Positions 1-52,295 of a stretch of DNA of 52,295 nt are shown here, in pieces. Below the pieces are notes generated by a model that was given only the letters and a program-made list of their open reading frames with translations, ran no database searches and was not told where the DNA came from. The first letter of the stretch is position 1. Each line of letters starts with the position of its first letter. The DNA comes from a virus. Location: IMG/VR virus record IMGVR_UViG_3300003154_000003, positions 1 to 52,295 of that record. One strand, given 5' to 3'. Made by a program: the position numbers and the translations under genes.

Positions 1-22
1 AAATAATATTATTTTTCCCTAT
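1..22. repeat. Terminal direct repeat, identical to 52274-52295 (circular closure or terminal redundancy)
   Basis: aaataatattatttttccctat occurs at both window ends. The match cannot be followed further because the window stops there. Confidence 0.9.
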
Positions 23-68
23 AATATAATATATAGGGAAAATTTGGCTAAAATCTTCGAAAATATAT
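1..68. promoter_or_regulatory. Right part of the 80-bp concentric palindromic element L1 (origin-like); the left part is 52260-52295
   Basis: Inner arms are ttttccctat (13-22) and atagggaaaa (33-42). The outer arm tcttcgaaaatatat (54-68) is the reverse complement of 52260-52274. After joining the ends through the 22-nt overlap, both arm pairs share the symmetry centre 27.5. Confidence 0.6.
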
Positions 69-1900
69 TTTCCTTGTTTGAAAGTGAGTGCCTCTCTCAT
101 CATCTCTTCAAAGTCGCGGCATCGCTTTATTTCAGGACTTGTTATATTTTTTTCTGTAAATTCTAAACCTGTATCCTCAACTGTATAGTTTTCAGTAACC
201 TTTCGGCCGAAACCCCAAGCGGTAACCGCTTTACATTGTTTCTCATTGCAACCTATAGCAAAAACTAAAGAAGTTTCTTTGCCTCCGGGGTCCTTGACCC
301 TGCTCCATGCTTGCCATGTATCGCTATGGGTTGCCTCATCTCTTAAAGCGTCGCTTTCCTCTTTCGTTTCGCGGTATGCATCGAAAGCGTTAGCCGGTTT
401 TTCTGCGGCACCCACGGCAATCATAACCCGGCAAGAAGAAGAAACACCCATCATCGACGGCGCCTTATAATAGGTTACGGCGTGCGGGTGTTTGCAGTTC
501 TTAAGCCCGTCTTCTAATATTTTTGCTTCCCTTATCGAAAGTGTGATTATTACGCAATCCTCGTCTCCGTAGGTTTCTAAAATTTTTATGATTTTATATA
601 GTGTCTCCGTAGAGCGTTTATAAAAACTATTCTTACCCACGGATGAAAACTTTTTAGTATCAGCTAATATAAGCATTTTCTTATTGGTCTGCATCGGGTC
701 CCCACCATGTCCGAATAAAACATTTTTTATAACAGTTTTCGGCGCAAATAATCCATGATAGTCGTAACTACATATTGTTGCCGATGTTAAAAACATACGC
801 CTATCCTCTCGCTTTTGTGCTTTCTTCATAAATTTGCTTATCATGTCCGTAAACATTTTATCGACGGCCACAATAGAAACTTTTATTTCTCCATACTCCG
901 GCACCGCATGGATATTGATAAATTCCGATGACATTATAGCAAGCATTTTGTAAAGTTTTAATACCTCATCGAGTGATAAATCATATTTCCGCCTGACCAC
1001 GGTTAACTCTATCAACTCGTTATAAGTAGCCACGATTTCCCTTTCGGTAATATCGCTATAATTATTTTTAAAAGTCTTTGATAGCTTATGCTTAAAAAAT
1101 TCCCGGTCTTTGCTATCTAAATATACCATCATAACCCCGTTTTTTATTTCCCCCTCATCTAATAGCATCCCGTAATCTGCTATTATTTTACGCAGTTGTG
1201 GAAAGTCCTGTGTAATCCTTAGATAATTAGTAAGGTTAACCCACTTTGCCCCATCGGCCGCGGCATCATTGTAAACCACCATCCCCGCACCCCGGCCATA
1301 TTGTATTTCATGCACTTCATCAAAAATTATATTTTTAACACCCATTATCTTATTTAAAATCCTTTCGGCCGTGGTGTTCGGTCGGCTATGGGCTGCAAGC
1401 TGCAAAGCTACAAGTTTCTGATAAGTAATAACAATGCCCCGGTAATCGTTACAATGTAATATCTGTGTTACCGGACAGCTATAATAATGCTCGCAATCCG
1501 CGCACTTTTCGGCAAGTGGCAGTATAGGCAATTGTGCCAACTCGGGCCATTGGTGACACTTTTCTTCATTCAGTAAGCACCTATGATTTGAAGGTATGTG
1601 AATTATAACCCCGTCCGGGTTGTCCGAATACTTCCGCGCCTCTTTTATAATAGTATCGTCGGCAATCGCGTTAGTAGGCACAACGGCTAAAAATTTTTCT
1701 TTTCTGTTCATTGATTCCGCAATTAATGCGGTAGTAGCCCCGGCCCTTGTTGTTTTATAAGTACTCGCAATTCCACCCTTTATATTCTCATAGATAGACC
1801 ACGCCACTAATAACCGCGGGTCGCGCGTAATCTGACCTAATTCTATTTGAACCGTCTGTAATTGCCTCCTTATTACAGATGTACTGATAACTATATAAGC
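1..1900 (-). CDS. SF2 helicase, XPD/DinG-like with a Cys cluster; 5-prime part of an ORF that leaves the window at nt 1 and continues at 52273
   Basis: My own block-by-block translation shows the minus frame (codon starts = 1 mod 3) open from the TAA at 1903-1901 to nt 1. Motifs read: YKTTRAGATTAL (degenerate motif I), HRCLLNEEKC...EKCADCEHYYSCP (Cys cluster between motifs I and II), FDEVHE (motif II), LTSAT (motif III), WQAWSRVKD (motif VI-like). The start is unclear; the first canonical start is GTG at 1807. Confidence 0.7.
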
Positions 1901-2372: not shown

Positions 2373-2627
2373 TTAATGTTTTTTCTCCAATTCGTCTACT
2401 GCATAGTATATTGACCGTCTTAAAGAATCTATACCATCTCTAAACGTTTTAGAAAATTCTTTTTCATGTTCGTTCGCCCTAGATAATTCACATGATATAG
2501 AAAATAATTTGTCACCAATTATATAAAGTTCATTGAGTTTATAAACAATAATCCACAATCCTATAGCAATTGATAATATTATTGTTTCCGTGATAAGTAA
2601 AATAATAGCTACATCCACGTTTACCAT
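2373..2627 (-). CDS. small membrane protein, 84 aa, N-terminal TM helix
   Basis: Track ORF with the hydrophobic stretch VAIILLITETIILSIAIGLWIIVY. It is the first gene after promoter-like element A1. Confidence 0.55.
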   Translation of the reverse strand: MVNVDVAIILLITETIILSIAIGLWIIVYKLNELYIIGDKLFSISCELSRANEHEKEFSKTFRDGIDSLRRSIYYAVDELEKKH

Positions 2628-7730: not shown

Positions 7731-7785
7731 AATACTTTGCCTCCTATTCGTTAGTTAGTAGTATGCACGGCAAAGTATAAATAGT
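7731..7785 (-). promoter_or_regulatory. Promoter-like element B, copy 1 (upstream of the ArdC-like gene)
   Basis: The minus strand reads CTATTTATA-N7-GTGCATACTACTAACTAAC, then GGAGGCAAAG and the ATG. The same arrangement with the same N7 spacing occurs at 44651-44686. Confidence 0.5.
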
Positions 7786-10353: not shown

Positions 10354-10425
10354 ATCATTTCAATTTAAAGCCACTTTTTAAGCCCGTGGAGAGGTCAGTA
10401 TATAAATGGTGGTGTATTCATATTA
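10354..10425 (-). promoter_or_regulatory. Conserved promoter/leader element A, copy 2
   Basis: Near-identical to A1 and A4. The minus strand has TTTATATA at 10406-10399. The conserved ATG at 10358 opens a 15-codon uORF (MMLVDIQKGLYYPAY). Confidence 0.6.
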
Positions 10426-10657: not shown

Positions 10658-10737
10658 TATATTTTCGAAGAAATATACAAAAAAGTCCCAATAATATAAA
10701 GTATATGGACAAATTAAACAATTTCTTCGAAAATATA
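10658..10737. repeat. 80-bp concentric palindromic element L2 (origin-like), paralogue of the junction element L1
   Basis: The perfect 17-bp arms TATATTTTCGAAGAAAT (10658-10674) and ATTTCTTCGAAAATATA (10721-10737) flank an imperfect inner dyad, gtcc..ggac (10685-10710), with the same centre (10697.5). An ungapped alignment to L1 gives 59 of 80 identities. The element lies in the most AT-rich intergenic stretch. Confidence 0.65.
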
Positions 10738-10892
10738 ATTATGTATTTATGAGCAATCAACAGATTAAAATAGGATAAAATCATTTATATGATTGCAAGT
10801 ATGAGGATATTATAATGATACCCCGGATTGTGGCCGGGGTGGAATAATATAGTTTCATGCTGCTATCTCAAATCTATAAATCCGTGGGTCTA

Positions 10893-12087: not shown

Positions 12088-14814
12088 TCACCCGAGTTTC
12101 CTTTCTCTGAATATCAACGACAGTGAAGCATCCGTATAAGTACCGCCGCTCTGTTCAAATGTCAAGGTATTAACACCATTGTTTAATTCCAACAGTTGAG
12201 CGCTTGATGTATCAAGTTCTATATTAAGAATCAAATCGTTTAATGCAGCACTTGAAACAATATCAGCGCTTATTTTTAACCATATCACGGTTTCGCCGTC
12301 ATATGTTACGCCATGCACGATAGATTCTAAGCTATAAGTATTTTCACCTGTTAATACTTCGTCGTCTATATCATACCACGCCGCCGGTTCCTGTAAATTC
12401 CCGGGGTCCATTGCTACCATTATCCGCGGGGTACCCTCGTATATGTCCATATCTAAAGTTAGCTGTGGGGTACCTATAACCGGGTAATAAGTCGGCACTT
12501 TGTAAATAATATATCCGTCGCTATCCAGTGTTAAACTTCCCGGTGAAACGGTATCAAGTGACACGTTATCAAATTCGTAAGCGTCGGCCCGCATCTTCCG
12601 GCTGGTGTATGGGTCCCGGTAATAATATGCTCCGGTACCATCGGCGTTTATTTCGACCTCCCCACCGACCAACATACATGAAACTAAATTTTCTTCAATT
12701 GTTGGTCTGTCATCGTTGATAATTGCCGCCCCGGAAACGTGTCCAAACCCTGTAAATTTTATGTATGGGTCTATCATAGGCACTTCATAATATACACTTC
12801 TTACGTGGTGGCTTGCTCCCTCTTCCCCGGTACACATTGAAAACTGAACGTCGCCGGTTGATGAAATTAAAGTCATTTCCATATAATAGTTTACTCCCGG
12901 GGCGAGTGGAATGCCCCGCACCCCGTCAAGCTGGCTATACATGTTTATACTGACTTCACCCACAACGTTTATATATATTGTTCCGTAGCCAATTATATTT
13001 TCGCGGTCTATGCTATCGAATATATAAATTCTATAGCTGCCGGGCAATGTCACCGACCGGACATATAAGCTGATAGTTTCGACGGAAACGGCTAACGGGT
13101 TATTAATGTTAAAAATGTATCCAAACGCTATGCTGTTTGTACAATTTCCTAGCTGCGTTTCTGCAATTCCGCCACTTTGTAAAGTTCCCTCGCCGTTCTT
13201 GGTGTTAAGTGTACCCCCACCCGTGCGCGGGTTATATGTGCATAGCTTAATACGTCCTGCACCACCGGCCCCGCCGTAGTAAGTAGACCCACCATAAGAA
13301 TAAGCATAGCCTGACCCACCGTTTGCAGTAATACCGGCCGGGGCAACAATGCTAATATCCTTTGCTGTTATTAGTATACCACCGCCGGACCCACTGCCTC
13401 CGCGATAACTACCGTATACGCTCCCGGTATCCCCATCTGCTTTTATACTGCCGGTGTTTGTAACTTCTATGGTTTCGGCTCTTAAGATAATGCACCCACC
13501 ACCGCGCCCACCTATGCCGCAAGTACTCTCTAAGTCAGTGTCCCCGGTAGCGCCGCCGCCGGACCCATGATAAATACCCGGTGAACCTGCCGGGGTGTCG
13601 TAAGTAGTACCGGCACTTGATGCATATAATATATGCCCGGGGTTTCCTACCCCACCATATCCACCGCCGCCGCCGCTATAACTTTCTAAACCTTTGCCTC
13701 CGCCCGGTCCGTCGGCGTTGGGATGGCTGACCCTGCCGCCCCAATACCCGGACCCATACGCGCCCAAAGTACCGGCAATTTTAATATGCTGCGCTCTGAT
13801 TTCGAGCGTGGTTAATTCTCCCATATATGATTCTAAGTCACCGGCTCCATACTGTAACATTGTTACACCGGCGGGGACAATAAAGTTTCTAATGTTATAA
13901 TGTAATCCGTTGGCATACATCCCGGCCGTGGCTACCCAATCTTGCCCGCCGTGGTCCCCGCCGCTTTCATTGGTCCATGCTACCCCGGATGTGTAGATAA
14001 TTGAACCCGAACCGGTTTTTGGATAATATGAAAAAACTTTGACACGGCCCATAGCACCCTTGCCGCCTTCATAAGTCACGCCGTTATAAGTGTAATTAAC
14101 ACCCGCGCCGCCGTCGGCTCTTATTATGCCCCCCTCATCTACATTAATATATGAGCATATTATAAGCACACCGCCGCCACTGCCAGCGCCGCCCTTATTG
14201 GTAGATGTTACCCCCCCATAAACCCACGTAAAGCCCGGCTCTCCATCGGCTGCTATTGCTCCGGTGCTCGAAACGTCAACACTTGTTGCTCTAATAATAA
14301 TACATCCACCGCCCCGGCCACCTCTTCCGGTTGCTTCCTCTGTACTGGCTGGCCCGGTAGCACCTCCACCACTTCCGAAATTAATATCCGTTCCGGCAAA
14401 TGTGCCGTAGGGTTGGCCAGCTAGTCCGGGGTATGAAACATAACCCGGCGTTCCTGTATATCCATAACCTCCGCCCGCACCGCTGTATGTAACCGCCAAA
14501 CCATGAGCCCCGCCCGGACCATCTGCGTTAAGGTGTCCATATCGGCCGCCGTGATATCCCGACCCATACGCAGCAAGCCAACCCCGGATTATAACAGTTT
14601 CCGCCCGTATTTCTAACTTCGTGCCCCCGCCCGCCAATGATGCACTGTCACTCATTCCACTTTGATAAACGGCGCGGTTGGTGTCCACGCAAAACGTGCC
14701 AATATTATAATGCAGCCCGTTAATATATTCATTATTTGCCGGATACCAATCATCTCCGCCGTGGTCCCCGCCGCCTTCGTTTGTCCATGTCATATTAAAC
14801 CCACCTATCGACAC
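12088..14814 (-). CDS. glycine-rich tail tip / fibre protein with an internal tandem duplication, 908 aa
   Basis: Track ORF. Two modules of about 270 aa start WTNEGGGDHGGDDW and WTNESGGDHGGQDW. They share LEIRA...AYGSGY.GGR...NADGPGG...GSGGGATG...GRGGRGGGCII.RA...ADG. The position after the tape measure and Dit-like genes supports a tail role. Confidence 0.55.
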   Translation of the reverse strand: MSIGGFNMTWTNEGGGDHGGDDWYPANNEYINGLHYNIGTFCVDTNRAVYQSGMSDSASLAGGGTKLEIRAETVIIRGWLAAYGSGYHGGRYGHLNADGPGGAHGLAVTYSGAGGGYGYTGTPGYVSYPGLAGQPYGTFAGTDINFGSGGGATGPASTEEATGRGGRGGGCIIIRATSVDVSSTGAIAADGEPGFTWVYGGVTSTNKGGAGSGGGVLIICSYINVDEGGIIRADGGAGVNYTYNGVTYEGGKGAMGRVKVFSYYPKTGSGSIIYTSGVAWTNESGGDHGGQDWVATAGMYANGLHYNIRNFIVPAGVTMLQYGAGDLESYMGELTTLEIRAQHIKIAGTLGAYGSGYWGGRVSHPNADGPGGGKGLESYSGGGGGYGGVGNPGHILYASSAGTTYDTPAGSPGIYHGSGGGATGDTDLESTCGIGGRGGGCIILRAETIEVTNTGSIKADGDTGSVYGSYRGGSGSGGGILITAKDISIVAPAGITANGGSGYAYSYGGSTYYGGAGGAGRIKLCTYNPRTGGGTLNTKNGEGTLQSGGIAETQLGNCTNSIAFGYIFNINNPLAVSVETISLYVRSVTLPGSYRIYIFDSIDRENIIGYGTIYINVVGEVSINMYSQLDGVRGIPLAPGVNYYMEMTLISSTGDVQFSMCTGEEGASHHVRSVYYEVPMIDPYIKFTGFGHVSGAAIINDDRPTIEENLVSCMLVGGEVEINADGTGAYYYRDPYTSRKMRADAYEFDNVSLDTVSPGSLTLDSDGYIIYKVPTYYPVIGTPQLTLDMDIYEGTPRIMVAMDPGNLQEPAAWYDIDDEVLTGENTYSLESIVHGVTYDGETVIWLKISADIVSSAALNDLILNIELDTSSAQLLELNNGVNTLTFEQSGGTYTDASLSLIFRERKLG

Positions 14815-18331: not shown

Positions 18332-18369
18332 TGGTTAACCCTCACAAAAAAATAAAGTTCACAAAAAAA

Positions 18370-19107
18370 TTACGTGAACTTGGTTAATATAACCTCATCA
18401 ACTGCAAATTCTAATGACTGTGTATAGAAGTCATCGACTGGCATATTAAGAGTAATGTTACTTGCAGTTATACCGTAAGCAAACCATTTCCTCTTAAGTG
18501 TTCCGCTGCTATCGATTTCTTCCCCAATCAATACGCCAATGTCATTAAATGCATGGAAAGCATTTGTCCATTTGACAATACTTGCTGCATCCGTTCCGGT
18601 GTCACCGCAAGCCTGACCGATTAAGGTAAGGTCATACTGCACGGCTTCAAGTGTCATAGTTGTTTTAATCGCACCGACCTTTTGAAGCTGTGTACTTTGG
18701 CCCTGCACACTTACGCCTTTTGTATCGGCGCTCATGGGTATGCTGACATCTTTACACGTTGCAATATGTGTAAGGGCGGGTGTGCCGGTTTCGACGTCTA
18801 TATAATGTATTACAAGCACGTCATTTTCGGCCAATGCTGCAAATGCAATCTTTACGGTATCGGTTGCATTTGTTGCCGGTGTGGTTCCGTCGCTCTGCAT
18901 TTCCTGAACACTATAATAAACGCCGTTCTTTGTTAGTACTACACTGCCGTATTCTGCATGTTTTGCTAACTCGTATAGTTTGGCGCTGGCCTCTCCACTT
19001 GTTGCGGTGTGGGTTTCGGAATATTTCACGCCGCCCGCATACCATTTTACGTCTGCGGAGTATGGGGCGCCGCTTCCTGTTGCTGTGCTGCTTGATTTCG
19101 TAGACAT
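18370..19107 (-). CDS. major tail protein, 245 aa
   Basis: Track ORF, positioned after the tail terminator-like gene and before the chaperones. Its size and Thr/Ser/Gly-rich composition are typical. Confidence 0.6.
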   Translation of the reverse strand: MSTKSSSTATGSGAPYSADVKWYAGGVKYSETHTATSGEASAKLYELAKHAEYGSVVLTKNGVYYSVQEMQSDGTTPATNATDTVKIAFAALAENDVLVIHYIDVETGTPALTHIATCKDVSIPMSADTKGVSVQGQSTQLQKVGAIKTTMTLEAVQYDLTLIGQACGDTGTDAASIVKWTNAFHAFNDIGVLIGEEIDSSGTLKRKWFAYGITASNITLNMPVDDFYTQSLEFAVDEVILTKFT

Positions 19108-27455: not shown

Positions 27456-27530
27456 TGCACAATTAGTTTAATGATTTTTATAATGCAATGCGTGATAACG
27501 ATTTAAAAAAACGCTATGCGTGGGTGCATC

Positions 27531-27594
27531 GATTTAAAGCCACTTTTTAAGCCCGTGGTGAGGTCAGTATATAAAGGGGTATACTTTCCTATTA
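27531..27594 (-). promoter_or_regulatory. Conserved promoter/leader element A, copy 3 (most diverged)
   Basis: It shares gatttaaagccactttttaagcccgtgg.gaggtcagtatataaagggg with the other copies. The minus strand has TTTATATA at 27575-27568 and a T7 run upstream. The ATG at 27529 opens an 8-codon uORF. Confidence 0.55.
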
Positions 27595-27739
27595 ACAAAA
27601 AAAGTTATGCGTTTTCAGCCATCCGATAGCGAAAAGGGTCTTATATAATTTGAAAAGTCGGCGGTGAAACCCAATCCTATAAAAGTTAGTGTCGGAAATA
27701 CTGTTTAGTAAAAATAAAAGAAGTCGTTTTTAAAGTTTA

Positions 27740-27893: not shown

Positions 27894-29369
27894 TTATTTA
27901 GTAACTATTAGTTTATAAGGCTTTCCGTATTCCACATCTGTATCGTATACCGCGCCAACATCACACATTTTTAAAACTTCGAATTGATTAATATTAGCTT
28001 GTTCGGCGGTATCTATAACCATTTCAAGCGGCACATATCTATGTTCCGCGCCTTCGCCCACCAACCGGCTAACATTTCGCTGCATGACTTTTTCTAATGG
28101 TAGATTGGTAGCCCTCAATTCAACTTCATAACCTAATGACCTATATTTATTTATGATTTTTTCGGCTTTGTCCTGCCGCTTCAATGTCCCGTCTATTATT
28201 ACGTTGCTACGTTCTTTTTGTATCCGGGCCTCTATTTGGTCTAATACGTCGCTGGCCTCATCGTGGAATAATGCGGCATTCGGGCCAGTATATCCCGGCA
28301 ACATGTGTTTTATATCATCGTTGTTTATATAGTTAAAACTATCAAAATCATTTACATATTTCTTAAGCCCGCCTTTACCTGACCCGGACGGACCCCCGAA
28401 CAATATAACCCGGGGTTTATTTCCCGTGGCGGGCTTCCCGGCAAATGTTTCTATTATTTCATTATGAACCATTTGCCGCTCTTCCGTGTATACCCCGTTA
28501 ACTTGATTCAAAAATTTAGATGTTCGGCCTAATCTAACCTGTTCATCTGTTAAAATTATTTCGTTCATAATAGCCGGATGCTTGCTTATTTCAAGTTGCG
28601 TTTTTATAAGTAGTTGCCGCTTTTCGGCATCCGGGGTTATCTTGGTATATTTCGCGGGTATGCTCTCCGGCAAGTTGACCGGTGGAATATCTGCCGGTTC
28701 GGTGGGTATATTAACCGGCGGCATGTCTCCCGGCTTTGGAATTACCGGTATATAAGTACATCTGCAATTAGGTTCACCCAATGGTGGGGCGTTGTCTATA
28801 CTATACGTTTTGCCGTTTCGGTCGCGGTGTAGCTGCCTAGTTTTTGCATCTCCTACCGCTAACCATTTTAACTCTTTTACCCCATGCTTTTTAAAACGTG
28901 TTTCGGCTCCTTCCCACTGAATGCGTTTTACTTCCGTGCGGGCAACCATTGAAGCATGAGAGCGGCGAGCATTAAAATAATCGTGAAGTTCCGACGCAAT
29001 GGAATCTTTCGGATATCCCCCCCGTTTATATTCCTTAACTCCCGTCGGCTTTCCCTCTTTTACCCCCCGGGCTATTATGTCGGCTACGGTCTTCCGCTGT
29101 TCTTCGGACGATTCTTTAAACCACGGCTTAAATATTTTTTTGTCCATGTTTGGGCCGCCGACTACCCACGTACCCCCCTTTGTAATCAAATCTTTTTTAT
29201 ATTGTTTAGAATATGCTAATGCTTCTTTCTGTACCTGCCTAACATTGATAGATGCTTTTAATAGATTGCTCGCGTCCATGTCACCGGATGCGTGAGATTT
29301 TGCCGCGCCTCTGGCTAATATCTGCGAAAATGCAATGTCAAAAATATTAAAAGCACCATCGAACGGCAT
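27894..29369 (-). CDS. MuF / SPP1 gp7-family minor head protein fused to a zeta-toxin-like P-loop kinase domain, 491 aa
   Basis: The MuF core reads ARTEVKRIQWEG...WLAVGDAKTRQLHRDRNGKTYSID...GEPNCRCTYIPV. A Pro-rich linker follows with repeated PPVN[IL]P. The C-terminal domain reads YTEERQMVHNEII...RVILFGGPSGSGKGG...NVIIDGTL...GYEVELRATNLPLEKVMQRNVSR, which fits the zeta / AAA_33 pattern. Confidence 0.7.
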   Translation of the reverse strand: MPFDGAFNIFDIAFSQILARGAAKSHASGDMDASNLLKASINVRQVQKEALAYSKQYKKDLITKGGTWVVGGPNMDKKIFKPWFKESSEEQRKTVADIIARGVKEGKPTGVKEYKRGGYPKDSIASELHDYFNARRSHASMVARTEVKRIQWEGAETRFKKHGVKELKWLAVGDAKTRQLHRDRNGKTYSIDNAPPLGEPNCRCTYIPVIPKPGDMPPVNIPTEPADIPPVNLPESIPAKYTKITPDAEKRQLLIKTQLEISKHPAIMNEIILTDEQVRLGRTSKFLNQVNGVYTEERQMVHNEIIETFAGKPATGNKPRVILFGGPSGSGKGGLKKYVNDFDSFNYINNDDIKHMLPGYTGPNAALFHDEASDVLDQIEARIQKERSNVIIDGTLKRQDKAEKIINKYRSLGYEVELRATNLPLEKVMQRNVSRLVGEGAEHRYVPLEMVIDTAEQANINQFEVLKMCDVGAVYDTDVEYGKPYKLIVTK

Positions 29370-33372: not shown

Positions 33373-35043
33373 TTAAAATTCCCCCATTACCCACGTTGGA
33401 GCGCTGCTGTAAGTAATGTTTATGACACTTCCCGGGGCAAGGGTAAACCGGCCAGATGTTAGCCCGGTTGTTAACAGCGTGCCGCCAGACTTCGAAACTT
33501 TTATAGCGGAAACCGTGCCGCCGTATATGAACACATCTAAATTTACATGGAAAGTGTTTGTCCAACTTGTGCCGCTGCTTGGCACGGCTGGCGCTGTCAC
33601 GTTTCCAACCGGGTTATATCCATAACAATTAGATATTTCGCTATTGGTTCCCACCAACAAAGCCGCGGCGGTCACATATGATTTTATAAGGCACCCATCA
33701 AATTTATTATAATCCGACGTACCACTTTCTAAAATACCGTAACTGTGCCCCGTTATCATTCTAACCGCGCTTGCTGTGTTCTCGTTTGCATTAACGCAAT
33801 CAATCCCCGCGCCGGTGTTGTTATAACATTCCCCATCTACAAACCCGTTTCGATTTGCGGAAGTTAAAACTATTGCATCCCCGGCAATATCTCTTATCAT
33901 AAAGGTGCTGAAACTATTTCCATGACACCCGCTATCTATCTTTATGCCCTGTGGGGTTGTTGTTATCGGTCCACCGTATATAAACAAATTGTTAAAGTTG
34001 TTTCGGCTGCTGGTTGTCTGCATTAATATTGCTGGTCCTTTCGTATAACGTAAATCAAGATTTGAAAATACATTTTCTGCACATGTTGTTAAGCTTATTC
34101 CCGGGCTGGTTGCTGTTCCGTTGCTCGGGTCCTGCGTGGTTATTATATTGCATCCAACATTAAACCGGCTGTTGTATCCTAAAATGCATTCATTCCATAC
34201 GTTCGAACCCATTATATTACTTATCCGATTTCCGCCTATGTAATAAAGATTTAAAACCGGCCCGTGAATATCAACGGCTGTGATGTTACTTATTATATTA
34301 TTTGAGGTAGTAACCGAGGACCCGGCCCGGACCCGGACACCTGCCGTATTAAAGCCATAACTTGCGCTAAACTGGCTGTACAAATATACCTTATTAATAT
34401 GTAAATTTGTTAATGATGTTGAGCTTATAGTATCTATACCGGTGTCGATTCCGTAACGACATACTATATTATTCATATATAAGTCTGCGCCGTTAATTTG
34501 AATACCGGTATATAGCCATTCAGTAGTAACATTTTCCACTACACCCCCCGCACCCGTTTTAATACCTATTATTGTATTGGTTGCGGCATGTGATGCAAGG
34601 GTTAATGTTACATTGCGCACCGTAAAATATGACGCGGCCGATGCATCTATGCCTATTGTACATGCGTCTATAGTCATCACGGCCCCGTGAAAATCTATAT
34701 CCCCATAACTAACGGCCGTTAAATTTGAACCTAATGCAGCATTGCCGCCTATGTAATGTATGGTTGTATATGGGTGTGCGGCTAATGCCGTTTCTAATGC
34801 GGTTGCTACATCTGCATAGTCATCCACATCATACGTACATAAATTATCGTCGCCCACCGTAATTATTCCATATGTAGCAAAAAGCTGTTCGGGCGTTTTG
34901 CTCCGCCATTTATCAACGTCCGAGCCGCCGCCGCTTCCAGAATGTGCGGCATATATCCCCGCTTCCATCCGGTTAAGTTGTGCGGCGGTTATAGGTGTTG
35001 CCGTGCTCGGGTAATCTTCCCATGTTTCCGGTACAAATACCAT
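33373..35043 (-). CDS. tail fibre / depolymerase with a right-handed beta-helix, 556 aa
   Basis: The N-terminal WEDYPSTATPITAAQLNRMEAGI is a motif common at phage fibre N-termini. Repeated N-[IV]-x-x-x-N-[IV] beta-helix rungs follow (NNIISNITAV, NRISNIMGSN, NNFNNLFIYGG). No signal peptide. Confidence 0.6.
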   Translation of the reverse strand: MVFVPETWEDYPSTATPITAAQLNRMEAGIYAAHSGSGGGSDVDKWRSKTPEQLFATYGIITVGDDNLCTYDVDDYADVATALETALAAHPYTTIHYIGGNAALGSNLTAVSYGDIDFHGAVMTIDACTIGIDASAASYFTVRNVTLTLASHAATNTIIGIKTGAGGVVENVTTEWLYTGIQINGADLYMNNIVCRYGIDTGIDTISSTSLTNLHINKVYLYSQFSASYGFNTAGVRVRAGSSVTTSNNIISNITAVDIHGPVLNLYYIGGNRISNIMGSNVWNECILGYNSRFNVGCNIITTQDPSNGTATSPGISLTTCAENVFSNLDLRYTKGPAILMQTTSSRNNFNNLFIYGGPITTTPQGIKIDSGCHGNSFSTFMIRDIAGDAIVLTSANRNGFVDGECYNNTGAGIDCVNANENTASAVRMITGHSYGILESGTSDYNKFDGCLIKSYVTAAALLVGTNSEISNCYGYNPVGNVTAPAVPSSGTSWTNTFHVNLDVFIYGGTVSAIKVSKSGGTLLTTGLTSGRFTLAPGSVINITYSSAPTWVMGEF

Positions 35044-35061: not shown

Positions 35062-38000
35062 TTAAGATACATCTGCGTACAATGAAAACCTTTCAGATTC
35101 CGCGCCGTACAAACCACACCACGCCCACAGCGTCACGTTTTCGCCGGGTGCCAGTGCAGTATTAACCGCCTGTGGAGTAGAACTTAGTTTAATGCTATCT
35201 GCCCCCTTTATCGGGTCATTGTCTACCCATATATCTATCGTGGCGGGTGTGTCCCGGTCAAGATATAAATACGGTGTTCCGCTACTTCCCCCGGTGTTGG
35301 TTATTTTCAATGTCGGCTGTGTGCTGTTTTGTGCATAGTTCGGCACCAAGTTAGCCCACCAAAACGCATCAAAGTATAAATAATCCAATGCGTCCCCTGT
35401 ATACCACATTTCGCCGTCCCAATATTGGAACCCATCAATAGGTGGTATTGTGAACCCGAAATTATAATACTTCGATTCTCCGGCGGACTGTGGGCCGGTT
35501 GTAATGGTTATTACTCCATCGTTCTTAACATATTCTGCATTGGTGTTATTTGTACTGAATGAGTTTACAGCGACGCCGTTAAACCGTCTGTCGGCAAGGG
35601 TATATATAATAGTTCCGTTCGTGCTGTCTAATAGCACATCTTGAACCATTGAAACATTTAATTGCCCGCTTGCCCTTGTTTCCTCGGTGGTTAAATCGGT
35701 GTCGTTGAACGTCATCAAAGCGGATACGTCGAACGTAGATAAATTATATGCCGAAAATACCAATTGTGTAAGGTTTCCCATACCATGTGGTAAGCTTACC
35801 GGGTTGTCTGCTACGCTGTCCCACTGATTAGACCACGCACCCAAACCATAGAACCTTATATATTTGTTCACAGTGTCGGTTATGGTAACATTACCACTTA
35901 CCAGATAAGCACCTGTATAAGTTTGTGACAATGTAAAGGGCGTTGTATAATTCATATCGTTAGCGGTTTCGGTATAATATCCACTGTATCCGGTTTTTGG
36001 TACTTCGTAATAATCCGGTTCGCCGTCTTCCCCGTCTTCCAGTACTTCAACCGACCATTCATAACTATCTGATTCCGCGCCTTCAATGACATATAGCATT
36101 ATGGTATAGTACCCGGATGGCATACCTGTACCCCATGTGTATGAGTCACTGGTTGCACCTATTGCCGTATTTCCTGCAATGCCGTTATAATACCAATAGT
36201 AATTAGCTGCTTTATTGGTGCTCGCGCTGAATGTTCTTGTACTATTGTGCGGCAAGGTTGTACTAGCTGCCGGGCTGGTTTCGATAATGTTCAATGTTTC
36301 CGGTTCATATATGGTAATTTCCCACTCCACAAAATCGTCGTCGGTTTCCGCTCTAACCGTATATGTGCCGTTTGTTGTTGAAACGAAATCATATCCGGCT
36401 GCGTATCCCGGGGCGGCTGTTGTGTCGGTTTCCCTTAAGTTTCCGTCAACCTTCCACACAACGGATGTATTCGTATTTGTGGTAACATTAAAAGCTTTTA
36501 TGGTGTTCTTCGGCCAGCTAAATGATGCTGTACCGGGTGCATAGCTTTCTATTGTCTTCGGATTTGGTGCGGTTGCATATATGCTCAATTTCGGGGCTCT
36601 TGATGCATTACCGTTTTCTGAACTGTAGAAAGCTATATAATTATCGTGCTCGTTTCCAGCTTTCAGGAAAAATCCCTTGTTATACTGCGGATACGTTGCA
36701 AAAGATTGTACCAAGTCGGTTACATCTATCGATATATACCCATTTATGGGTATGTCTTCCGCGTTTATGGTATAATTACCGAATGGATACCCCGGCGGTT
36801 CGCTGGTTGGATTTACATAATTTAAGGTGTTTTGATAATCTCCGCCCGGATACGTCCACGCTGCCCCGGTTAATCTACTGTTCCAAGTTACCTGTGATTG
36901 TGTCCACGATTCGGCAGGAACAACTTTATATACTTTTATATCAGTGTCGTTGTTCCTTGTAACCCCGGCCGGATAATACCACCACAAATCAAGGGTAGCA
37001 TATCCAATATCCTCCGGGTCATAGCTGGTTAAATTGAAATACAGCAAATCCCTATAAACTGCACCGGTTGACGCAATTTGTCCCAAGTCTAAATAAGTGC
37101 CCGTTCCGAAATTACTATCGGGTGTAGTTGATTTTATACGTGAATCGGCAACTGTAACCGGTGCTTCCGGCGGGGTTTCGTTGCCAACCGTTACGGATGC
37201 ATAATAATATGTTGAACCTTCTGCATTGGTCAGTGTTAATGTGTAGGTTGTGCTTGCGGTTGGATATACCGCAACGGCTCCGCCGGATACCGGGGTAACG
37301 GCACCCACGCCGGAAATTGAAGCGCTTACCGCGTTGGTACTCGTCCAAATTAAATTAGACGATTCCCCGGCGGTTATACTGGTCGGGTTTGCCGTAAACG
37401 TTCCATACGGATACACGGCCCCACTGGCAGACTTTGACGCTTCGGCGGTGTTACCATACCGGCCGATATTTGCACGCGCACCGTTTGGCTGTGGCTCGAG
37501 ACTATAGGGCATTGTAGCCTTGCCGGTATCTATGCATATACTGTTAACCGTGTCGGCTGTCCATGTGCTCCCTGTCCACCGGCCCGCCGTGCTCTTAAGA
37601 TGATAATCCCGGGACCCATAGGCGCCCGTCATAAGATAAACCGCGGGGTCGCCGTGAATGTTATTAGTCATTGTAAACCCGCCGGACCCGCTGGCGCTGT
37701 ACGTATCCCCTACGTTATTATAGAAACAATTATTCTCTACAACAAAATGATTTCTTGGGAATATGTTAGCAATACCATACCCGGAATTAGTATAACCGGT
37801 TGGAGTTAGGGCGGTATTCATTATAATATTATTTCTAACGTAAGTTGTGTAACTGACCCCGCTTGCCGGTCGGATGTCTCTTTCTTCCCACGCTATAGCC
37901 TGTTGCCCGCAGTCATCGAAAACATTGTGCTCGATACGTGTATTTTGGAAATTCATTATTGAGATACCACTATTTGAATAACCATTATCTGAGTAGTGAC

Positions 38001-38985
38001 CCGTATAAGTAAAGGTGTTGTGGTGTATATAAACACCTTCGCCGTGTACGGTTGTGTCCGATGTGCCCCCGCTCGCGTGTGATAACCAAATACCGGAAGC
38101 GTAACCGTTATAAAATTTATTATTATTGACTTCAATGTCATTAAAATACGGACTTGTTGCGCTGCTTCCTATCTGCACGAGCGGGCCGCTATACGCCCCG
38201 CCGATACTGCTATAAAAAACATTGTTTCTTACATCGGCGTGCTGTATACCATCTGACAGCCTAACACATGAATTTGTACGGCTCTTAAGCACGTTATTTT
38301 CAACAAGTACATATTCGGCCGTCAGGAAATAAAAACATTCGTGCCCCAATTCCCACGCTGTATTATTTGTAATAGTGATATGGTCCGATGTTCTTATATT
38401 CATTCCGTCAATGTCACCGTACTGCATGTGTGTATTATCTATAGTCAGATATGACACATCATTAAACTGTACTAAAATATTCCCGCTGTCGCCTAAAGAG
38501 GTGTCTTGTGGGTGTCCACCGTCTAGGGTTATGTTCCTAATTGCTATATGGTTAGCACCGTTAACAGCATCAATCAAATTTAACCCGGTCGTGGACCGTG
38601 CGGCACTTGTAAATGTTATTACGGCGTCCTCGTCGCCGCTTAGAGTTATACCAGTGTTTGGCCCCACTATTTCAGATGGAACATAATAAGTATGCGGTCC
38701 TTTAAGATATACCGTAGTATACCCGCTCGCTTTGTTGTTATAAGCATAAGCAAGGGCATTAGTAATCATTGTGTGGTCCGTGCTGCTTGATAGCGTGCCC
38801 GTACATGTGTAAGTTGTGCCCCCGGCCGTATCTCCGGCATTGCCTGTATAACCAACGTACAAAACGGGCGGGGCTGCGGCGCCTGACCCGGCGGGGTGTA
38901 ATACTAATACGCTTATCGCAAGCAGTAGCAAAACACCATAAAATAGTTTACTAAAAGTATCAATCGGACCGGTCTTAAAATTCAT
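35062..38985 (-). CDS. secreted multidomain beta-helix glycanase-like protein (disaggregatase-like) with a DNRLRE-type segment and Ig-like repeats, 1307 aa
   Basis: The N-terminal signal or anchor reads FYGVLLLLAISVLVLHPAGSGAAA. PbH1-type rungs are present (ITITNNTAWE, VLVENNVLKS, VRNNVFYSS, IHHNTFTY, IEHNVFDD, VVENNCFYNN). The segment ADSRIKSTTPDSNFGTGTYLDLG...LLYFNL...VTWNSR resembles the DNRLRE domain. Two repeats of about 65 aa belong to the same type as those in 21361-23598. Confidence 0.6.
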   Translation of the reverse strand: MNFKTGPIDTFSKLFYGVLLLLAISVLVLHPAGSGAAAPPVLYVGYTGNAGDTAGGTTYTCTGTLSSSTDHTMITNALAYAYNNKASGYTTVYLKGPHTYYVPSEIVGPNTGITLSGDEDAVITFTSAARSTTGLNLIDAVNGANHIAIRNITLDGGHPQDTSLGDSGNILVQFNDVSYLTIDNTHMQYGDIDGMNIRTSDHITITNNTAWELGHECFYFLTAEYVLVENNVLKSRTNSCVRLSDGIQHADVRNNVFYSSIGGAYSGPLVQIGSSATSPYFNDIEVNNNKFYNGYASGIWLSHASGGTSDTTVHGEGVYIHHNTFTYTGHYSDNGYSNSGISIMNFQNTRIEHNVFDDCGQQAIAWEERDIRPASGVSYTTYVRNNIIMNTALTPTGYTNSGYGIANIFPRNHFVVENNCFYNNVGDTYSASGSGGFTMTNNIHGDPAVYLMTGAYGSRDYHLKSTAGRWTGSTWTADTVNSICIDTGKATMPYSLEPQPNGARANIGRYGNTAEASKSASGAVYPYGTFTANPTSITAGESSNLIWTSTNAVSASISGVGAVTPVSGGAVAVYPTASTTYTLTLTNAEGSTYYYASVTVGNETPPEAPVTVADSRIKSTTPDSNFGTGTYLDLGQIASTGAVYRDLLYFNLTSYDPEDIGYATLDLWWYYPAGVTRNNDTDIKVYKVVPAESWTQSQVTWNSRLTGAAWTYPGGDYQNTLNYVNPTSEPPGYPFGNYTINAEDIPINGYISIDVTDLVQSFATYPQYNKGFFLKAGNEHDNYIAFYSSENGNASRAPKLSIYATAPNPKTIESYAPGTASFSWPKNTIKAFNVTTNTNTSVVWKVDGNLRETDTTAAPGYAAGYDFVSTTNGTYTVRAETDDDFVEWEITIYEPETLNIIETSPAASTTLPHNSTRTFSASTNKAANYYWYYNGIAGNTAIGATSDSYTWGTGMPSGYYTIMLYVIEGAESDSYEWSVEVLEDGEDGEPDYYEVPKTGYSGYYTETANDMNYTTPFTLSQTYTGAYLVSGNVTITDTVNKYIRFYGLGAWSNQWDSVADNPVSLPHGMGNLTQLVFSAYNLSTFDVSALMTFNDTDLTTEETRASGQLNVSMVQDVLLDSTNGTIIYTLADRRFNGVAVNSFSTNNTNAEYVKNDGVITITTGPQSAGESKYYNFGFTIPPIDGFQYWDGEMWYTGDALDYLYFDAFWWANLVPNYAQNSTQPTLKITNTGGSSGTPYLYLDRDTPATIDIWVDNDPIKGADSIKLSSTPQAVNTALAPGENVTLWAWCGLYGAESERFSLYADVS

Positions 38986-39445: not shown

Positions 39446-39912
39446 TCTTCTTTATTGTCGTCTGCCGTCCCGGTTGCCCGCGTTAACCGTTCCTTCCTTA
39501 TAACGGCTAGTTCTTTTTCGACGTTCAATAAACGCCTCCATAGTTCATCACGTTCCCGGTTATCCGCTAACATCCTTTGATAGCAATCAACGTGATAATG
39601 TTCTGTACCCAATAGTATATAGTTCTTTCCCTCTACCTTCTTACCACATGCCGTATAAGGGCATATATACACGTTCGCGGCTTCATTCTCCGGTTTGTAT
39701 ACCAACATAGCGACAGCATCATTAAATTCCGTGGCAAACTGATTAACCCGGCTAATAAAGTCCTGCGTTTGTTCGGTTCTCGGGTCATCTGCGAGCAACA
39801 AATCTAAAGAAGTTTTTCTAAGTTCCTTAAGAATTTTATGTGCATCGTTAAGCACTCTATCATATTTTTGTAGATTCATTCTATAGCACCTGATTATGTT
39901 TACTGATATCAT
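39415..39912 (-). CDS. Zn-ribbon plus coiled-coil protein, 165 aa
   Basis: Track ORF containing CPYTACGKKVEG...HYHVDCY. The listed ATG at 39912 is the conserved ATG of element A4. An alternative start is 39879 (MNLQKYD). Confidence 0.55.
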   Translation of the reverse strand: MISVNIIRCYRMNLQKYDRVLNDAHKILKELRKTSLDLLLADDPRTEQTQDFISRVNQFATEFNDAVAMLVYKPENEAANVYICPYTACGKKVEGKNYILLGTEHYHVDCYQRMLADNRERDELWRRLLNVEKELAVIRKERLTRATGTADDNKEDCKDGACKVL

Positions 39913-39979
39913 TTCAATTTAAAGCCACTTTTTAAGCCCGTGGCGAGGTCAGTATATAAAGGGTGGTATATTCATATTA
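39908..39979 (-). promoter_or_regulatory. Conserved promoter/leader element A, copy 4
   Basis: Near-identical to A1 and A2. The minus strand has TTTATATA at 39960-39953 and a T5 run upstream. It also shares an upstream ATTGACGGAAA box with A1 (40010-40020 versus 2744-2754). Confidence 0.6.
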
Positions 39980-40031
39980 ACCACCCCGAAAAAGTGGGAA
40001 ATCGCCGCCTTTCCGTCAATATATGAATGCA

Positions 40032-40310
40032 TCACATATATGCAATGTAACTAAACAAGGCAATGATTACAACTGACAAAACGGCAATAACAATAGTCAT
40101 AATACTTATTAGCTTATTGACTTCATAACAGCGCACACGAAAGCCCAAATCTTCGCCGCCACAATGCACCCGGCGTATATCCCAATCGGTCGTAAGGTGT
40201 TTACATATCGGGCACACCGGGTATTTTATACCCATTGGTCTATAATTACATGCTGCGGGCTCGTCATGCCACGTTTTAATTCTAACGTCTGTACTCGGGT
40301 CTAAATCCAT
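40032..40310 (-). CDS. Zn-ribbon protein with a C-terminal TM helix, 92 aa
   Basis: Track ORF 40032-40385, trimmed to the ATG at 40310 (MDLDPS), which is preceded by GGTGGGG. It contains CPICKH...HCGG and a tail IMTIVIAVLSVVIIALFSYIAY. Confidence 0.45.
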   Translation of the reverse strand: MDLDPSTDVRIKTWHDEPAACNYRPMGIKYPVCPICKHLTTDWDIRRVHCGGEDLGFRVRCYEVNKLISIMTIVIAVLSVVIIALFSYIAYM

Positions 40311-40737: not shown

Positions 40738-40823
40738 AATAAAGCCTCTTGTTATGGTTAAGTTTATGTAATCCAAACTATATAAGCATTTCATTAGTTG
40801 AAAATGAATATAGTTACATGTGA

Positions 40824-44341: not shown

Positions 44342-44560
44342 TCACACCTCGATAACGGGCGGTTCCCAATAGGTCACATACGGCCTGTTTATCCTGACAT
44401 AAAGCGGAATTAGATTATTATTAAAACTGTCCCAATTGCAAATATCCCATATAGAACTTGTACGGTCCGACCATACACAAATCGCCGCCACCCCTTCAAT
44501 TCTATAATGCTGTTCAATAATTTTTTCTGCTTCATTTGATTTGATAGTTTTCTTTGTCAT
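44342..44560 (-). CDS. hypothetical protein, 72 aa
   Basis: Track ORF preceded by GGAGGCAAAG. It lies downstream of element B2 and a structured leader. Confidence 0.5.
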   Translation of the reverse strand: MTKKTIKSNEAEKIIEQHYRIEGVAAICVWSDRTSSIWDICNWDSFNNNLIPLYVRINRPYVTYWEPPVIEV

Positions 44561-44583
44561 ACTGCTTTGCCTCCGTTTATTAT

Positions 44584-44653
44584 AGGAAAGGATTAATCAG
44601 CTATCCCCCCGCCGCCTGTAATGGTTCCGGTCGGGGTGCCTTTATCCTTTCCT
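44584..44653 (-). promoter_or_regulatory. Structured 5-prime leader (nested stem-loop) between promoter-like element B2 and the 44342-44560 gene
   Basis: The outer 10-bp stem pairs aggaaaggat (44584-44593) with atcctttcct (44644-44653). An inner GC-rich stem pairs ccccccgccg (44605-44614) with ccggtcgggg (44627-44636), with one bulge. This insert is absent from the otherwise parallel B1 leader. Confidence 0.35.
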
Positions 44654-44686
44654 TAGTTAGTAGTATGTACTCAATCATATAAATAG
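44651..44686 (-). promoter_or_regulatory. Promoter-like element B, copy 2
   Basis: The minus strand reads CTATTTATA-N7-GTACATACTACTAACTAAG. The layout and spacing match 7751-7784. Confidence 0.5.
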
Positions 44687-44902
44687 GTGTTGGTCATTGG
44701 GTGCATTGATTGTTACCCCTTCAATTTTCACACCCGGCGAACCCGGTTTATTAGCCGCCCTTATTAATTCTTCCGCAATTCTTAACATCCGAGTCCGTAG
44801 GGCCCTATCTGAAATGTCCGCATTTACACCCTGCAATAGCTGTATAGAGTACTCAATACACTCTTCTTTCAATGTCTTTACACTGTCATGCATTACTTTC
44901 AC
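44675..44902 (-). CDS. hypothetical protein, 75 aa
   Basis: Track ORF; its stop lies inside the TATA-like box of element B2. Confidence 0.45.
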   Translation of the reverse strand: MKVMHDSVKTLKEECIEYSIQLLQGVNADISDRALRTRMLRIAEELIRAANKPGSPGVKIEGVTINAPNDQHLFI

Positions 44903-46991: not shown

Positions 46992-47164
46992 TCTTTACGC
47001 CCCCATTGGTTAGTTTACATTATGTACATGTAAGTATATAAGCTTATCTAAATATATAAAACTTATCCTGCCCGAAACATTTATAAGTTCCAAAGTATTA
47101 TTATAACTTGTTACGGGTTGGCAATCTCGCCCGTGACTGCCTCCATATTGGCGAGTCACTACAA

Positions 47165-51308: not shown

Positions 51309-52295
51309 CTATTCATGCAGATTCAGCCACGCTTTATAAAAGCCCTCACAATTTTCTATAAGTGTGGTGGTCCTTACACTTGGCAACTCAATACTAATTA
51401 TAGATTCAACGTGATATAGCGACTCGTTGAAATTATAGTCCTTCTGACCCTTAAATAGTTCCGTAAGGGCTACGGGGTCCTTCATACCGGCATTGTAATA
51501 CTCGCGCACACAGTATATACGCAGGTTGTGCCCTTCCTCGCCCTCTAGCTGTTGGGTTAAAGCCCATTCAAAGAACGGCCGAACCTTTCCCGCTCTTACC
51601 TTCATATTCTCCGGCATGTCTACGGCCTCGCTGGCCTCTGCTGCTGGCTCTTTAAATTCAATTCCGCTTATATCGACTATGCCAATTTCCAACTCTGTAA
51701 AATCCTCGCACCATTCACCGTTTATTAAAATTGCTGATTTGTTTCCGGTCTTTCTGTGAGTAGCAAAAGGCAACTTGACAAGATTACCGTATCCTTTTTT
51801 ATCGGCAATCATCTGTTTAGGGTAAACTTCACATTTAACTTTAGCAGTTTTGATAATATGTTTACCGAATAATTTGGCCTGTTTTGCGGCTACCGGTTGC
51901 AATAATATCCAAATATGATATGAAAACGGCGAACCGGACCATTCGAGGATAAAGGGTATGCTTAACGATTTTAGCAAGTTACCAATTTTATTAACATTCT
52001 CGTCTGATTGCTGACATTTTAAATTATATTGACTGTCCGAATCCTCGGGCTTTCTATGAGCATCTATGTCAAAGCATACCCATTTTACCATGTTCCCGGG
52101 TCCTAATGTGTAGGCGCCAACTGTTATTTCACCGGATAAATGACGCTGCAATAGTTCTTCGTCAACTTTACCATTTTCTTTATAGTAACTTCCGCTAGAA
52201 ATTTGTAAAGCGTAAGCGTCCTCCCGTGCTATAAGTAACTGTAAAAAGTTACATCTATTATATATTTTCGAAGAAATAATATTATTTTTCCCTAT
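51309..52295 (-). CDS. archaeo-eukaryotic primase-polymerase (AEP/PrimPol) domain; 3-prime part of the wrap-around helicase-primpol ORF
   Basis: The track lists 51309-52151 from a TTG, but the frame stays open upstream to the window end. AEP motifs read: HLSGEITVGAYTL...WVCFDIDAH (motif I DxD), SGSPFSYHIWILL (motif II), EVYPKQ...GYGNLVKLPFATHRKTGNKS (motif III). Confidence 0.8.
   Translation of the reverse strand: MGKNNIISSKIYNRCNFLQLLIAREDAYALQISSGSYYKENGKVDEELLQRHLSGEITVGAYTLGPGNMVKWVCFDIDAHRKPEDSDSQYNLKCQQSDENVNKIGNLLKSLSIPFILEWSGSPFSYHIWILLQPVAAKQAKLFGKHIIKTAKVKCEVYPKQMIADKKGYGNLVKLPFATHRKTGNKSAILINGEWCEDFTELEIGIVDISGIEFKEPAAEASEAVDMPENMKVRAGKVRPFFEWALTQQLEGEEGHNLRIYCVREYYNAGMKDPVALTELFKGQKDYNFNESLYHVESIISIELPSVRTTTLIENCEGFYKAWLNLHE
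52260..52295. promoter_or_regulatory. Left part of the 80-bp concentric palindromic element L1
   Basis: atatattttcgaaga (52260-52274) is the exact reverse complement of 54-68. The stretch 52261-52277 is identical to the left arm of L2 (10658-10674). Confidence 0.6.
52274..52295. repeat. Terminal direct repeat, identical to 1-22
   Basis: Exact 22-nt match to the window start. Confidence 0.9.

Follow-up and report, generated by a model that had tools for sequence, protein, structure and literature searches.

A repeated, probable promoter-leader cassette and its conserved 32-nt block in the genome of a virus with a probable Methanosarcina-type host

Why should a viral genome carry near-identical copies of one short intergenic sequence in front of four different gene blocks, and which part of that sequence is maintained by selection? 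The question is raised by the IMG/VR virus record IMGVR_UViG_3300003154_000003, analysed here over its whole length of 52,295 nt (the window; the virus is called W), in which a cassette of about 70 nt occurs four times (A1 to A4). A first-pass annotation had described these copies as terminator, promoter and leader combined, dividing the genome into four operons under shared control. Judged from sequence comparison, the feature is very likely a promoter-leader cassette; the operon scheme is not upheld, and the part of the cassette that proves to be conserved is not the part to which that annotation had drawn attention.

Matching of a 70-nt consensus on the minus strand located three of the copies, at 2644-2713 (no mismatches), 10354-10423 (two mismatches) and 39908-39977 (one mismatch), with no match in 100 shuffles. 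A repeat finder recovered the diverged copy A3 at 27529-27596, which is 84-88% identical to the other three over 68 nt, and the two approaches together confirm four near-identical copies on one strand. All four contain an invariant core of 44 nt with one variable base, TTTATATACTGACCTC[G/T/A]CCACGGGCTTAAAAAGTGGCTTTAAAT, and A1, A2 and A4 have about 45 nt more in common upstream (77-86% identity), forming a 115-nt repeat family. As had been stated, every copy is intergenic, points in the direction of the genes and stands at the head of a gene block: A4 (39908-39979) heads the fibre, TerS, TerL, portal and MuF genes; A3 (27523-27596), situated between the MuF-zeta gene and the head genes, heads the head and tail genes; A1 (2644-2715) heads a block starting with a small membrane protein; and A2 (10354-10425) heads small genes of unknown function (all on the minus strand).

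The order of the parts can be read from A4, where, again on the minus strand, a block I (TAATATGAA, 39979-39971) is followed by the TATA octamer TTTATATA (39960-39953) and by a 32-nt block II (39939-39908), within which box 1 (CTTAAAAA, 39936-39929), a GTG (39928-39926), box 2 (CTTTAAAT, 39924-39917) and an ATG (39912-39910) succeed one another. The upstream extension that A4 has in common with A1 and A2 (39980-40020) contains a ATTGACGGAAA box and a T5 run (39993-39989), the latter a candidate oligo-T terminator for the preceding gene, whose stop codon lies at 40032. The earlier description of the parts holds in each of the following respects. The octamer is perfect in all four copies (2696-2689 in A1, 10406-10399 in A2 and 27575-27568 in A3, with block II at 2675-2644, 10385-10354 and 27554-27523, respectively). 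The ATTGACGGAAA box is common to A1 and A4, the extension of A1 (2716-2756) also including a T6 run (2728-2723); A3, which diverges upstream of the TATA box and in the final 9 nt of block II, is preceded by a T7 run (27603-27597), and A2 has no T-run directly upstream. An ATG follows the octamer at 40, 40, 38 and 40 nt in A1 to A4 and opens upstream open reading frames (uORFs) of 6, 15 and 8 codons in the first three; in A4 it is in frame with an open reading frame (ORF) of 165 codons' worth of protein (165 aa), in which a second ATG follows 33 nt on, preceded by an AGGTG Shine-Dalgarno sequence. In A1 (ATG at 2648-2646, minus strand) the TAA of the 6-codon uORF abuts the ATG (2627) of an 84-aa protein, the first gene after the cassette (2373-2627, minus strand); this protein has an N-terminal transmembrane helix and may be holin-like or another membrane protein, fitting a late class.

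IMG/VR contains a single syntenic relative of W, here called R (UViG_3300038673_000301, locus L001), and the same virus is present in two contigs of the Joint Genome Institute (JGI), L011 and L012. R, of 46.4 kb, lies at the end of L011, a JGI 3300045917 contig whose 121,425 bp correspond to about 2.6 genome lengths, either as a concatemer assembly or as an integrated copy. Proteins of W and R are 30-75% identical, many non-structural genes being without detectable homology, and diverged homologues of the cassette are found in R at all four syntenic positions: E1 before the helicase block (L011:9183-9255), E2 after the tail genes (L011:3590-3650), E3 between MuF and the head genes (L001:14880-14940) and E4 before the fibre block (L001:2080-2165). 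The four-site layout therefore appears to be ancestral and not the result of recent insertion.

The conserved part of these homologues is block II (GGGCTTAAAAAGTGGCTTTAAATTGAAATGAT in W), in which E1, E2 and E4 are identical to W at 25-27 of the 32 positions, accompanied by the short block I (GGTTAATATG) some 43 nt upstream of it. A whole-genome blastn comparison returned only three conserved noncoding segments between W and R, of which block II is one, with 84-85% identity as against 64-69% for coding DNA. Only one feature recurs in all eight copies, namely two CTTWAAA boxes spaced at 11-12 bp. The TTTATATA octamer, which in W lies about 15-16 nt from block II, is absent from three of the four R copies, E1, E2 and E4 being G-rich at its position, and E3 has TATATAAA at the same distance. 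The comparison shows selection acting on the 32-nt block at the predicted transcript start and not on the TATA octamer. Within R, copies E1, E2 and E4 agree with one another at 22-26 of the 32 positions of block II, and at fewer outside it, which makes them about as different among themselves as from W. The copies of W do not differ even at positions where R tolerates change, and so have been made uniform over about 70 nt, most simply by gene conversion; the same process explains the identical bases of the non-conserved spacer.

A scan of IMG/VR with a degenerate cassette pattern led to a third lineage, comprising L030, L032 and L033, the last a contig from the European Nucleotide Archive (ENA). 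It carries a single cassette, between TerS and TerL, in the order T5 run, TAATATACCAC, 25 nt, GCTTAAAAATGGCCTTAGAATGAAAATGG. Homology with the cassette of W is real, because the 25-nt spacing from ATACCAC to GCTT is the same as in W and because an ungapped alignment of L030 with W, over the part that lies upstream of the pattern used for the scan, gives 26 matches in 46 bases, a level reached by none of 20000 shuffles. L030 too lacks the TTTATATA octamer and has a weak A/T box, AAATTTT, in the same place. In L030 and L033 the TerL gene begins at the ATG of the cassette (L030:1985-2125, L033:766-885) and, alone among the genes listed, has no Shine-Dalgarno sequence. The lineage is distant from W and podovirus-like, with SU10-type portal and adaptor matches. 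The L030 virus has two proteins in common with contigs that carry a Methanosarcinaceae-type helicase-primpol, a slight hint that hosts of L030-type viruses may be similar to that of W; homologues of the L030-type TerL gave no usable host information. A very similar block is present in a fourth, AT-rich contig (L031). Searching related viruses for the consensus, by which the first-pass annotation had thought its reading could be checked, thus yields homologues at all four sites in R and one copy in the L030-type lineage.

Beyond these lineages the searches were negative. The exact W core had no match in IMG/VR, a 19-mer scan of 185,579 genomes gave one match, an unrelated chance one in a metagenome-assembled genome (MAG) of Proteobacteria, and the degenerate pattern had no match in the metagenome collection. 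A scan of metagenomes with a TerL profile returned 11 relatives (37-52% identity), the block being present in none. Neither the cassette nor an analogous repeat was found in the TerL relatives L002-L009, the helicase-primpol relatives L013-L016 or the prophage loci L034-L036, and protein scans of IMG/VR with a tail protein and the tape measure as queries found nothing.

How the signals should be read depends on the host. The W genome is circular and of about 52.27 kb, since the two ends of the window (1-22 and 52274-52295) consist of the same 22 nt (AAATAATATTATTTTTCCCTAT) and, once this overlap is removed, one ORF is continuous over the junction (1900..1 joined to 52273..51309), encoding some 950 aa with helicase and AEP-TOTE primase parts (helicase-primpol). 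About 95 plausible genes are present, every one on the minus strand, and scans against Pfam and PHROGs assigned TerL, TerS, a MuF-zeta-toxin fusion, a tape measure, ArdC, an HNH protein and the AEP primase domain, together with a fibre of 1307 aa bearing Disaggr_repeat and Disaggr_assoc domains. The fibre proteins at 35062-38985 and 33373-35043 (minus strand) combine beta-helix and disaggregatase domains and are probably depolymerases for the methanochondroitin layer of Methanosarcina. Helicase-primpol has more than 130 homologues, the named ones lying in Methanolobus and Methanosarcina genomes, and one of them belongs to a Methanosarcina horonobensis prophage that also has disaggregatase-domain proteins and a MuF gene. 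Taken together, these gene types indicate an archaeal host in the Methanosarcinaceae, probably of the Methanosarcina type, which justifies reading the signals as archaeal; a bacterial host, one of the outcomes that would have overturned the earlier annotation, is at odds with this evidence. No DNA match was found among INPHARED phages, where the top TerL identity was 26%, and no tRNA or tmRNA was found in the window.

From these comparisons we infer promoter activity, the position of the transcription start site (TSS), the existence and origin of a factor, and a temporal class, as follows. Each cassette would mark the start of a transcription unit at a module boundary, to be used by the RNA polymerase (RNAP) of the Methanosarcina-type host. 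In three of the four copies it would begin with an oligo-T tract able to end the upstream transcript. There would follow a promoter built on the perfect TTTATATA box without a transcription factor B recognition element (BRE), the bases that precede the octamer (ACCACCC, ACCACCA or ATACCCC) not being purine-rich, and then the conserved block II, beginning about 15-16 nt after the TATA box. Start sites of Methanolobus psychrophilus are found at a distance of about 19-22 nt from the BRE/TATA element (PMC5378194); the 20 nt that separate the octamer of W from the pyrimidine-purine step between CTT and AAAAA fit this distance, which places the predicted start at the 5' edge of block II. Block II would accordingly supply the start region and the first 25-30 nt or so of every cassette transcript, an unstructured stretch ending in the conserved AUG, and would be recognised, as DNA or as nascent 5' end, by one shared trans-acting factor. 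Dependence on such an additional factor is suggested by the missing BRE, a point in which the cassettes differ from a second promoter family of W described below, and the factor may be host-encoded, because the block is common to viruses with almost no proteins in common. We give a probability of roughly 0.55 to this reading, in which the cassettes form a co-regulated, probably structural or late promoter class and the conserved start-site block is the recognition site for a shared factor. Of the earlier claims, that of archaeal promoters in an archaeal host agrees with the position, orientation and perfect TATA consensus of the octamers; what has to be given up is the octamer as the evolutionarily conserved element, given its absence from E1, E2 and E4.

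The terminator part should be interpreted with some caution. Runs of five or more T number 80 on the coding strand of the window, many of them within genes, the runs before A1, A3 and A4 are not kept in R, and the regions upstream of the cassettes fold no better than shuffles, with no significant hairpin.

The proposed division of the genome into four operons is contradicted by the abundance of other promoter-like sites. The TTTATATA octamer occurs 16 times on the coding strand, at least nine of the occurrences being intergenic, and there is a second family of predicted promoters (family 2), conserved in R (L011:16687, L001:365), with the order BRE (CGAAA/GATAA), TATA, N8, GTACATA, short leader (CTACTAACTAA), GGAGG, ATG. 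Family-2 sites lie directly upstream of the genes for ArdC (7747-7784), helicase-primpol (1879-1905) and the HNH protein (40766-40792), and upstream of two blocks of small genes (44649-44686 and 47006-47048), all on the minus strand, so that genes of early type would use a promoter that contains a BRE. The 44560-44690 region (minus strand), which runs for about 110 nt from the family-2 promoter at 44683 to the next gene, is another of the only three stretches of noncoding DNA that the comparison of W with R returned as conserved (74% identity over 91 nt; L011:16687-16800 in R), and might represent a long leader or a small RNA. With ArdC and the replication gene under promoters of their own, nothing requires the cassettes to switch on early and late genes at the same time. 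Shared control, as the earlier annotation had it, does fit a TSS-proximal or leader block under selection across virus lineages; the simultaneous firing of early and late modules that it also considered is not forced by the data. For comparison, 28 transcription units have been reported for the 80 ORFs of the haloarchaeal tailed virus HFTV1 (PMC12542753).

Several observations weigh against the reading we favour. In both W and R, the stretch from the cassette to the first gene contains a further canonical TATA at sites 2 and 3. At site 2 of W this is a BRE/TATA-like site, AAAGGTTTATATT (about 10335-10323, minus strand), some 20 nt downstream of A2 and ahead of the first gene (ATG 10216). At site 3 an oligo-T run also intervenes (T7 at 27511-27505 in W, T6 in R), after which the TATA TTATAAAAA (27483-27475) ends 19 nt before the ATG (27455-27453) of a 342-aa head-module gene that has no Shine-Dalgarno sequence; the layout is the same in R (L001:15005-15067), and its leaderless geometry suggests that the head module has its own promoter. 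With a second promoter following at both sites, and a T7 run within about 20 nt of A3, the cassette would be unneeded for expression there. Moreover, E1, E2 and E4 have no good TATA at the position used in W, the available candidates being TTTCTATT, about 12 nt upstream of that position, or [T/C]AAAATG, about 6 nt downstream of it, so that either promoter geometry differs in R or block II itself holds the real TATA. The roughly seven distinct block II sequences are too few for position-by-position statistics. Finally, no DNA-binding Pfam or PHROG family was detected in about 70 small proteins scanned, which leaves no candidate for the factor.

Some other roles can be set aside more readily. 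No Rfam family reached the gathering threshold over the whole window, and none relevant, CRISPR-DR included, was found at E<=10 around A4. RNAalifold predicted no base pairs for the eight copies, and single folds gave non-significant z-scores of -1.2 to +1.0. An antisense target within the virus was not found, the best duplex of the leader RNA (-17.2 kcal/mol) lying inside the range of shuffle minima. A conserved leader peptide is ruled out by the unrelated peptides and by the lengths, which are 6, 15 or 8 codons, or a long ORF, in W and 5, 1 and 12 codons in R. Nor is block II coding, as it contains no ORF in W and its substitutions are not biased to synonymous ones. The palindromic operator GCCAC-N11-GTGGC visible in W has arms that are not kept in R, and promoters of the class used by T7-like phage RNAP were rejected because no RNAP-like domain was found in the large or small ORFs scanned.

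Among the explanations that remain, the main rival to the shared-factor reading is that block II is itself the complete TATA/PPE/Inr core promoter, with box 1 (CTTAAAAA, CATAAAAA or CTTTAAAT) as the TATA, box 2, near -10, as a promoter-proximal element rich in A and T, and a TSS at or just after the conserved ATGA. The TTTATATA of W and the TATATAAA of E3 would then be an added upstream promoter, in tandem about 25 nt away, and leaders would be very short. It would account for the presence of block II in all copies and all lineages while the upstream octamer is missing from E1, E2, E4 and L030, and a T-G/A pyrimidine-purine step does occur 18-22 nt after box 1 in every copy; the TerL of L030 and L033, without a Shine-Dalgarno sequence and starting inside the block, and the ATG of the A1 gene, 21 nt past the conserved ATG, are also in keeping with it. 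On the other hand, the centre of box 1 is only about 20-22 nt from the conserved ATG, nearer than the usual archaeal -26/-27, the bases before it are G-rich (CGGG) and unlike a BRE, E1 has a disrupted box 2 (CTTAGAAA), and a transcript started here at A3 would reach the T7 run after about 16 nt. We regard this as possible, though clearly less probable than recognition by a shared factor. A more doubtful alternative moves the function to translation: transcription would start in the A-run, placing an NUG no more than 5 nt from the 5' end to open a mini-ORF of 1-4 codons, whose stop abuts or overlaps the conserved AUG, where ribosomes would reinitiate on a first gene lacking a Shine-Dalgarno sequence or on a uORF that serves as relay. 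Immediately behind the A-run there is indeed a GTG in W, E1 and E2, an ATG in L030 and L031 and a TTG in E3, a start codon in six of the seven distinct sequences, which in W gives GTG GCT TTA AAT TGA, one base, ATG, and in L030 ATG GCC TTA GAA TGA, overlapping the TerL ATG as ATGA. The unstructured, A/U-rich block, the abutting uORF stop (TAA) and gene ATG at A1 and the in-frame ATG at A4 would suit such a relay as well. E4, however, has no start codon at the NUG position, lengths and peptides of the mini-ORFs and uORFs are not conserved, and coupling to a gene is missing at A2 of W, at E2 of R and at either copy of site 3; AT-rich leaders often contain short ORFs by chance, GUG and UUG make poor starts at a 5' end, and the sequences compared number just seven. 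Were it true, block II would be a translational launch pad peculiar to these viruses of methanogens; one short cassette would unite a terminator and a promoter with a leaderless-to-reinitiation relay, and unrelated viruses infecting the same hosts would be exchanging it.

The element could also be a DNA-level signal apart from transcription initiation, such as a recombination hot-spot for module exchange or a replication or packaging site, its intergenic, same-orientation placing following only from the gene layout. Near-identity over about 70 nt in W, which extends to bases not kept in R, does show recombination or gene conversion, the cassettes stand at module boundaries, and they persist although the flanking non-structural genes of W and R are mostly non-homologous. 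Yet the R copies are too diverged for homologous exchange and are still retained, a conserved palindrome near site 2 is the better candidate for an origin, and the perfect TATA consensus and fixed orientation to genes would be left unexplained, so that we consider this unlikely. Least probable of all is a solitary CRISPR-repeat-like unit (an RNA anti-CRISPR or mini-array) or a promoter-carrying miniature mobile element. Block II is of repeat size (about 32 nt), each unit would have its own promoter, the cassette is present in otherwise very different viruses, and block II of W ends in ATTGAAAT, which we take to resemble the AUUGAAAC/G handle of CRISPR RNA (crRNA). In R that handle-like ATTGAAA gives way to AACGAAAT or ATTAAAAT, spacers and arrays are absent, and the Rfam search found no CRISPR-DR match even at the relaxed threshold given above. 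The W core, moreover, has neither an exact copy in IMG/VR nor more than the one chance match in the genomes scanned. As for mobility, a candidate resembling a miniature inverted-repeat transposable element was rejected, terminal inverted repeats and target duplications both being absent and the sites orthologous between W and R; the insertion with target duplications that would have undone the earlier annotation is excluded by the same findings.

Some further features of the genome were seen alongside. A palindrome, TCCCTATA-N8-TATAGGGA with flanking TTCGAAAATATA repeats, is present at 11-39 of the window (with 52274-52295) and at 10670-10740, and in R at L011:3307-3362. In both viruses one copy, a candidate origin, is situated about 250 nt upstream of cassette site 2; the second W copy falls, where the ends of the circle meet, within the linker of the helicase-primpol ORF. 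The MuF minor head protein is fused to a zeta-toxin/AAA_33 kinase domain (27894-29369, minus strand), and only its MuF part aligns with the R homologue. Within the tail module, two T7 runs 10 nt apart (18346-18369, minus strand) come right after the stop of a 245-aa gene (19107..18370) and look like a strong archaeal terminator. A 44-nt direct repeat of 86% identity (13936-13979 and 14746-14789) inside the 908-aa tail gene is also found in R (L011:204-248), suggesting that a domain has been duplicated within the protein.

To our knowledge, almost nothing has been established about the timing of gene expression in tailed viruses of methanogens, and we know of no promoter class defined for any Methanosarcina virus. 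Two promoter families can be defined by sequence in the W genome, and one of them has a 32-nt start-site element that selection maintains in three divergent lineages. That element could serve as a short DNA or RNA bait for a host or viral factor controlling structural genes, and is a candidate for a strong or regulated promoter-leader part in Methanosarcina genetics. The comparison of W with R also points to gene conversion between promoters within the genome of an archaeal virus. Should the block be only a core promoter variant, the result would be an ordinary one, still useful for the annotation of such viruses.

Repeated virus-specific promoter cassettes are already known in other systems, and the cassette described here resembles each of them only in part. 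SIRV1 and SIRV2 promoters carry a virus-specific GTC trinucleotide just downstream of a TATA-like box, and the likeness consists in an extra virus-specific element beside the TATA on many promoters, suggesting common regulation; in contrast, the element of W has ten times the length, is placed at the start site and not next to the TATA, occurs in four copies only and is common to divergent viruses. Among bacteriophages, repeated cassettes include the 23-bp class promoters of T7-type phages, the promoter stem-loops (PeSLs) of T4-like phages, and the start-associated sequences (SAS), extended start-associated sequences (ESAS) and stoperators of mycobacteriophages; SAS elements lie between promoter and start codon, and stoperators are asymmetric and oriented relative to transcription. 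These too are multiple near-identical intergenic elements in the same orientation before gene blocks, defining a co-regulated class, but the cassette of W would work with archaeal machinery, has no stem-loop and numbers four copies, not tens, and no gene for a viral RNAP, a sigma-like protein or a repressor was found among the W proteins scanned against Pfam and PHROGs.

The nearest comparisons are with the promoters of the presumed hosts and with those of W itself. Methanosarcinaceae BRE/TATA promoters, as mapped by differential RNA sequencing (dRNA-seq) in Methanolobus psychrophilus (PMC5378194) and in Methanosarcina mazei, are alike in their TTTATATA-type TATA, in the distance of about 20 nt to a pyrimidine-purine start, in their position before co-oriented genes and in mixed short and long 5' untranslated regions, with some leaderless mRNAs. 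The cassette differs from them in having no purine-rich BRE, and in a conservation of the 32-nt start region that goes far beyond what a core promoter needs and persists in relatives whose TATA is weak or displaced. Family 2 of W is likewise repeated, kept in R and composed of a TATA, a conserved downstream element and a leader; it has, however, a canonical BRE, a shorter conserved part, a Shine-Dalgarno sequence and genes of early type behind it, while behind the cassette come the structural modules and two blocks of small genes of unknown function.

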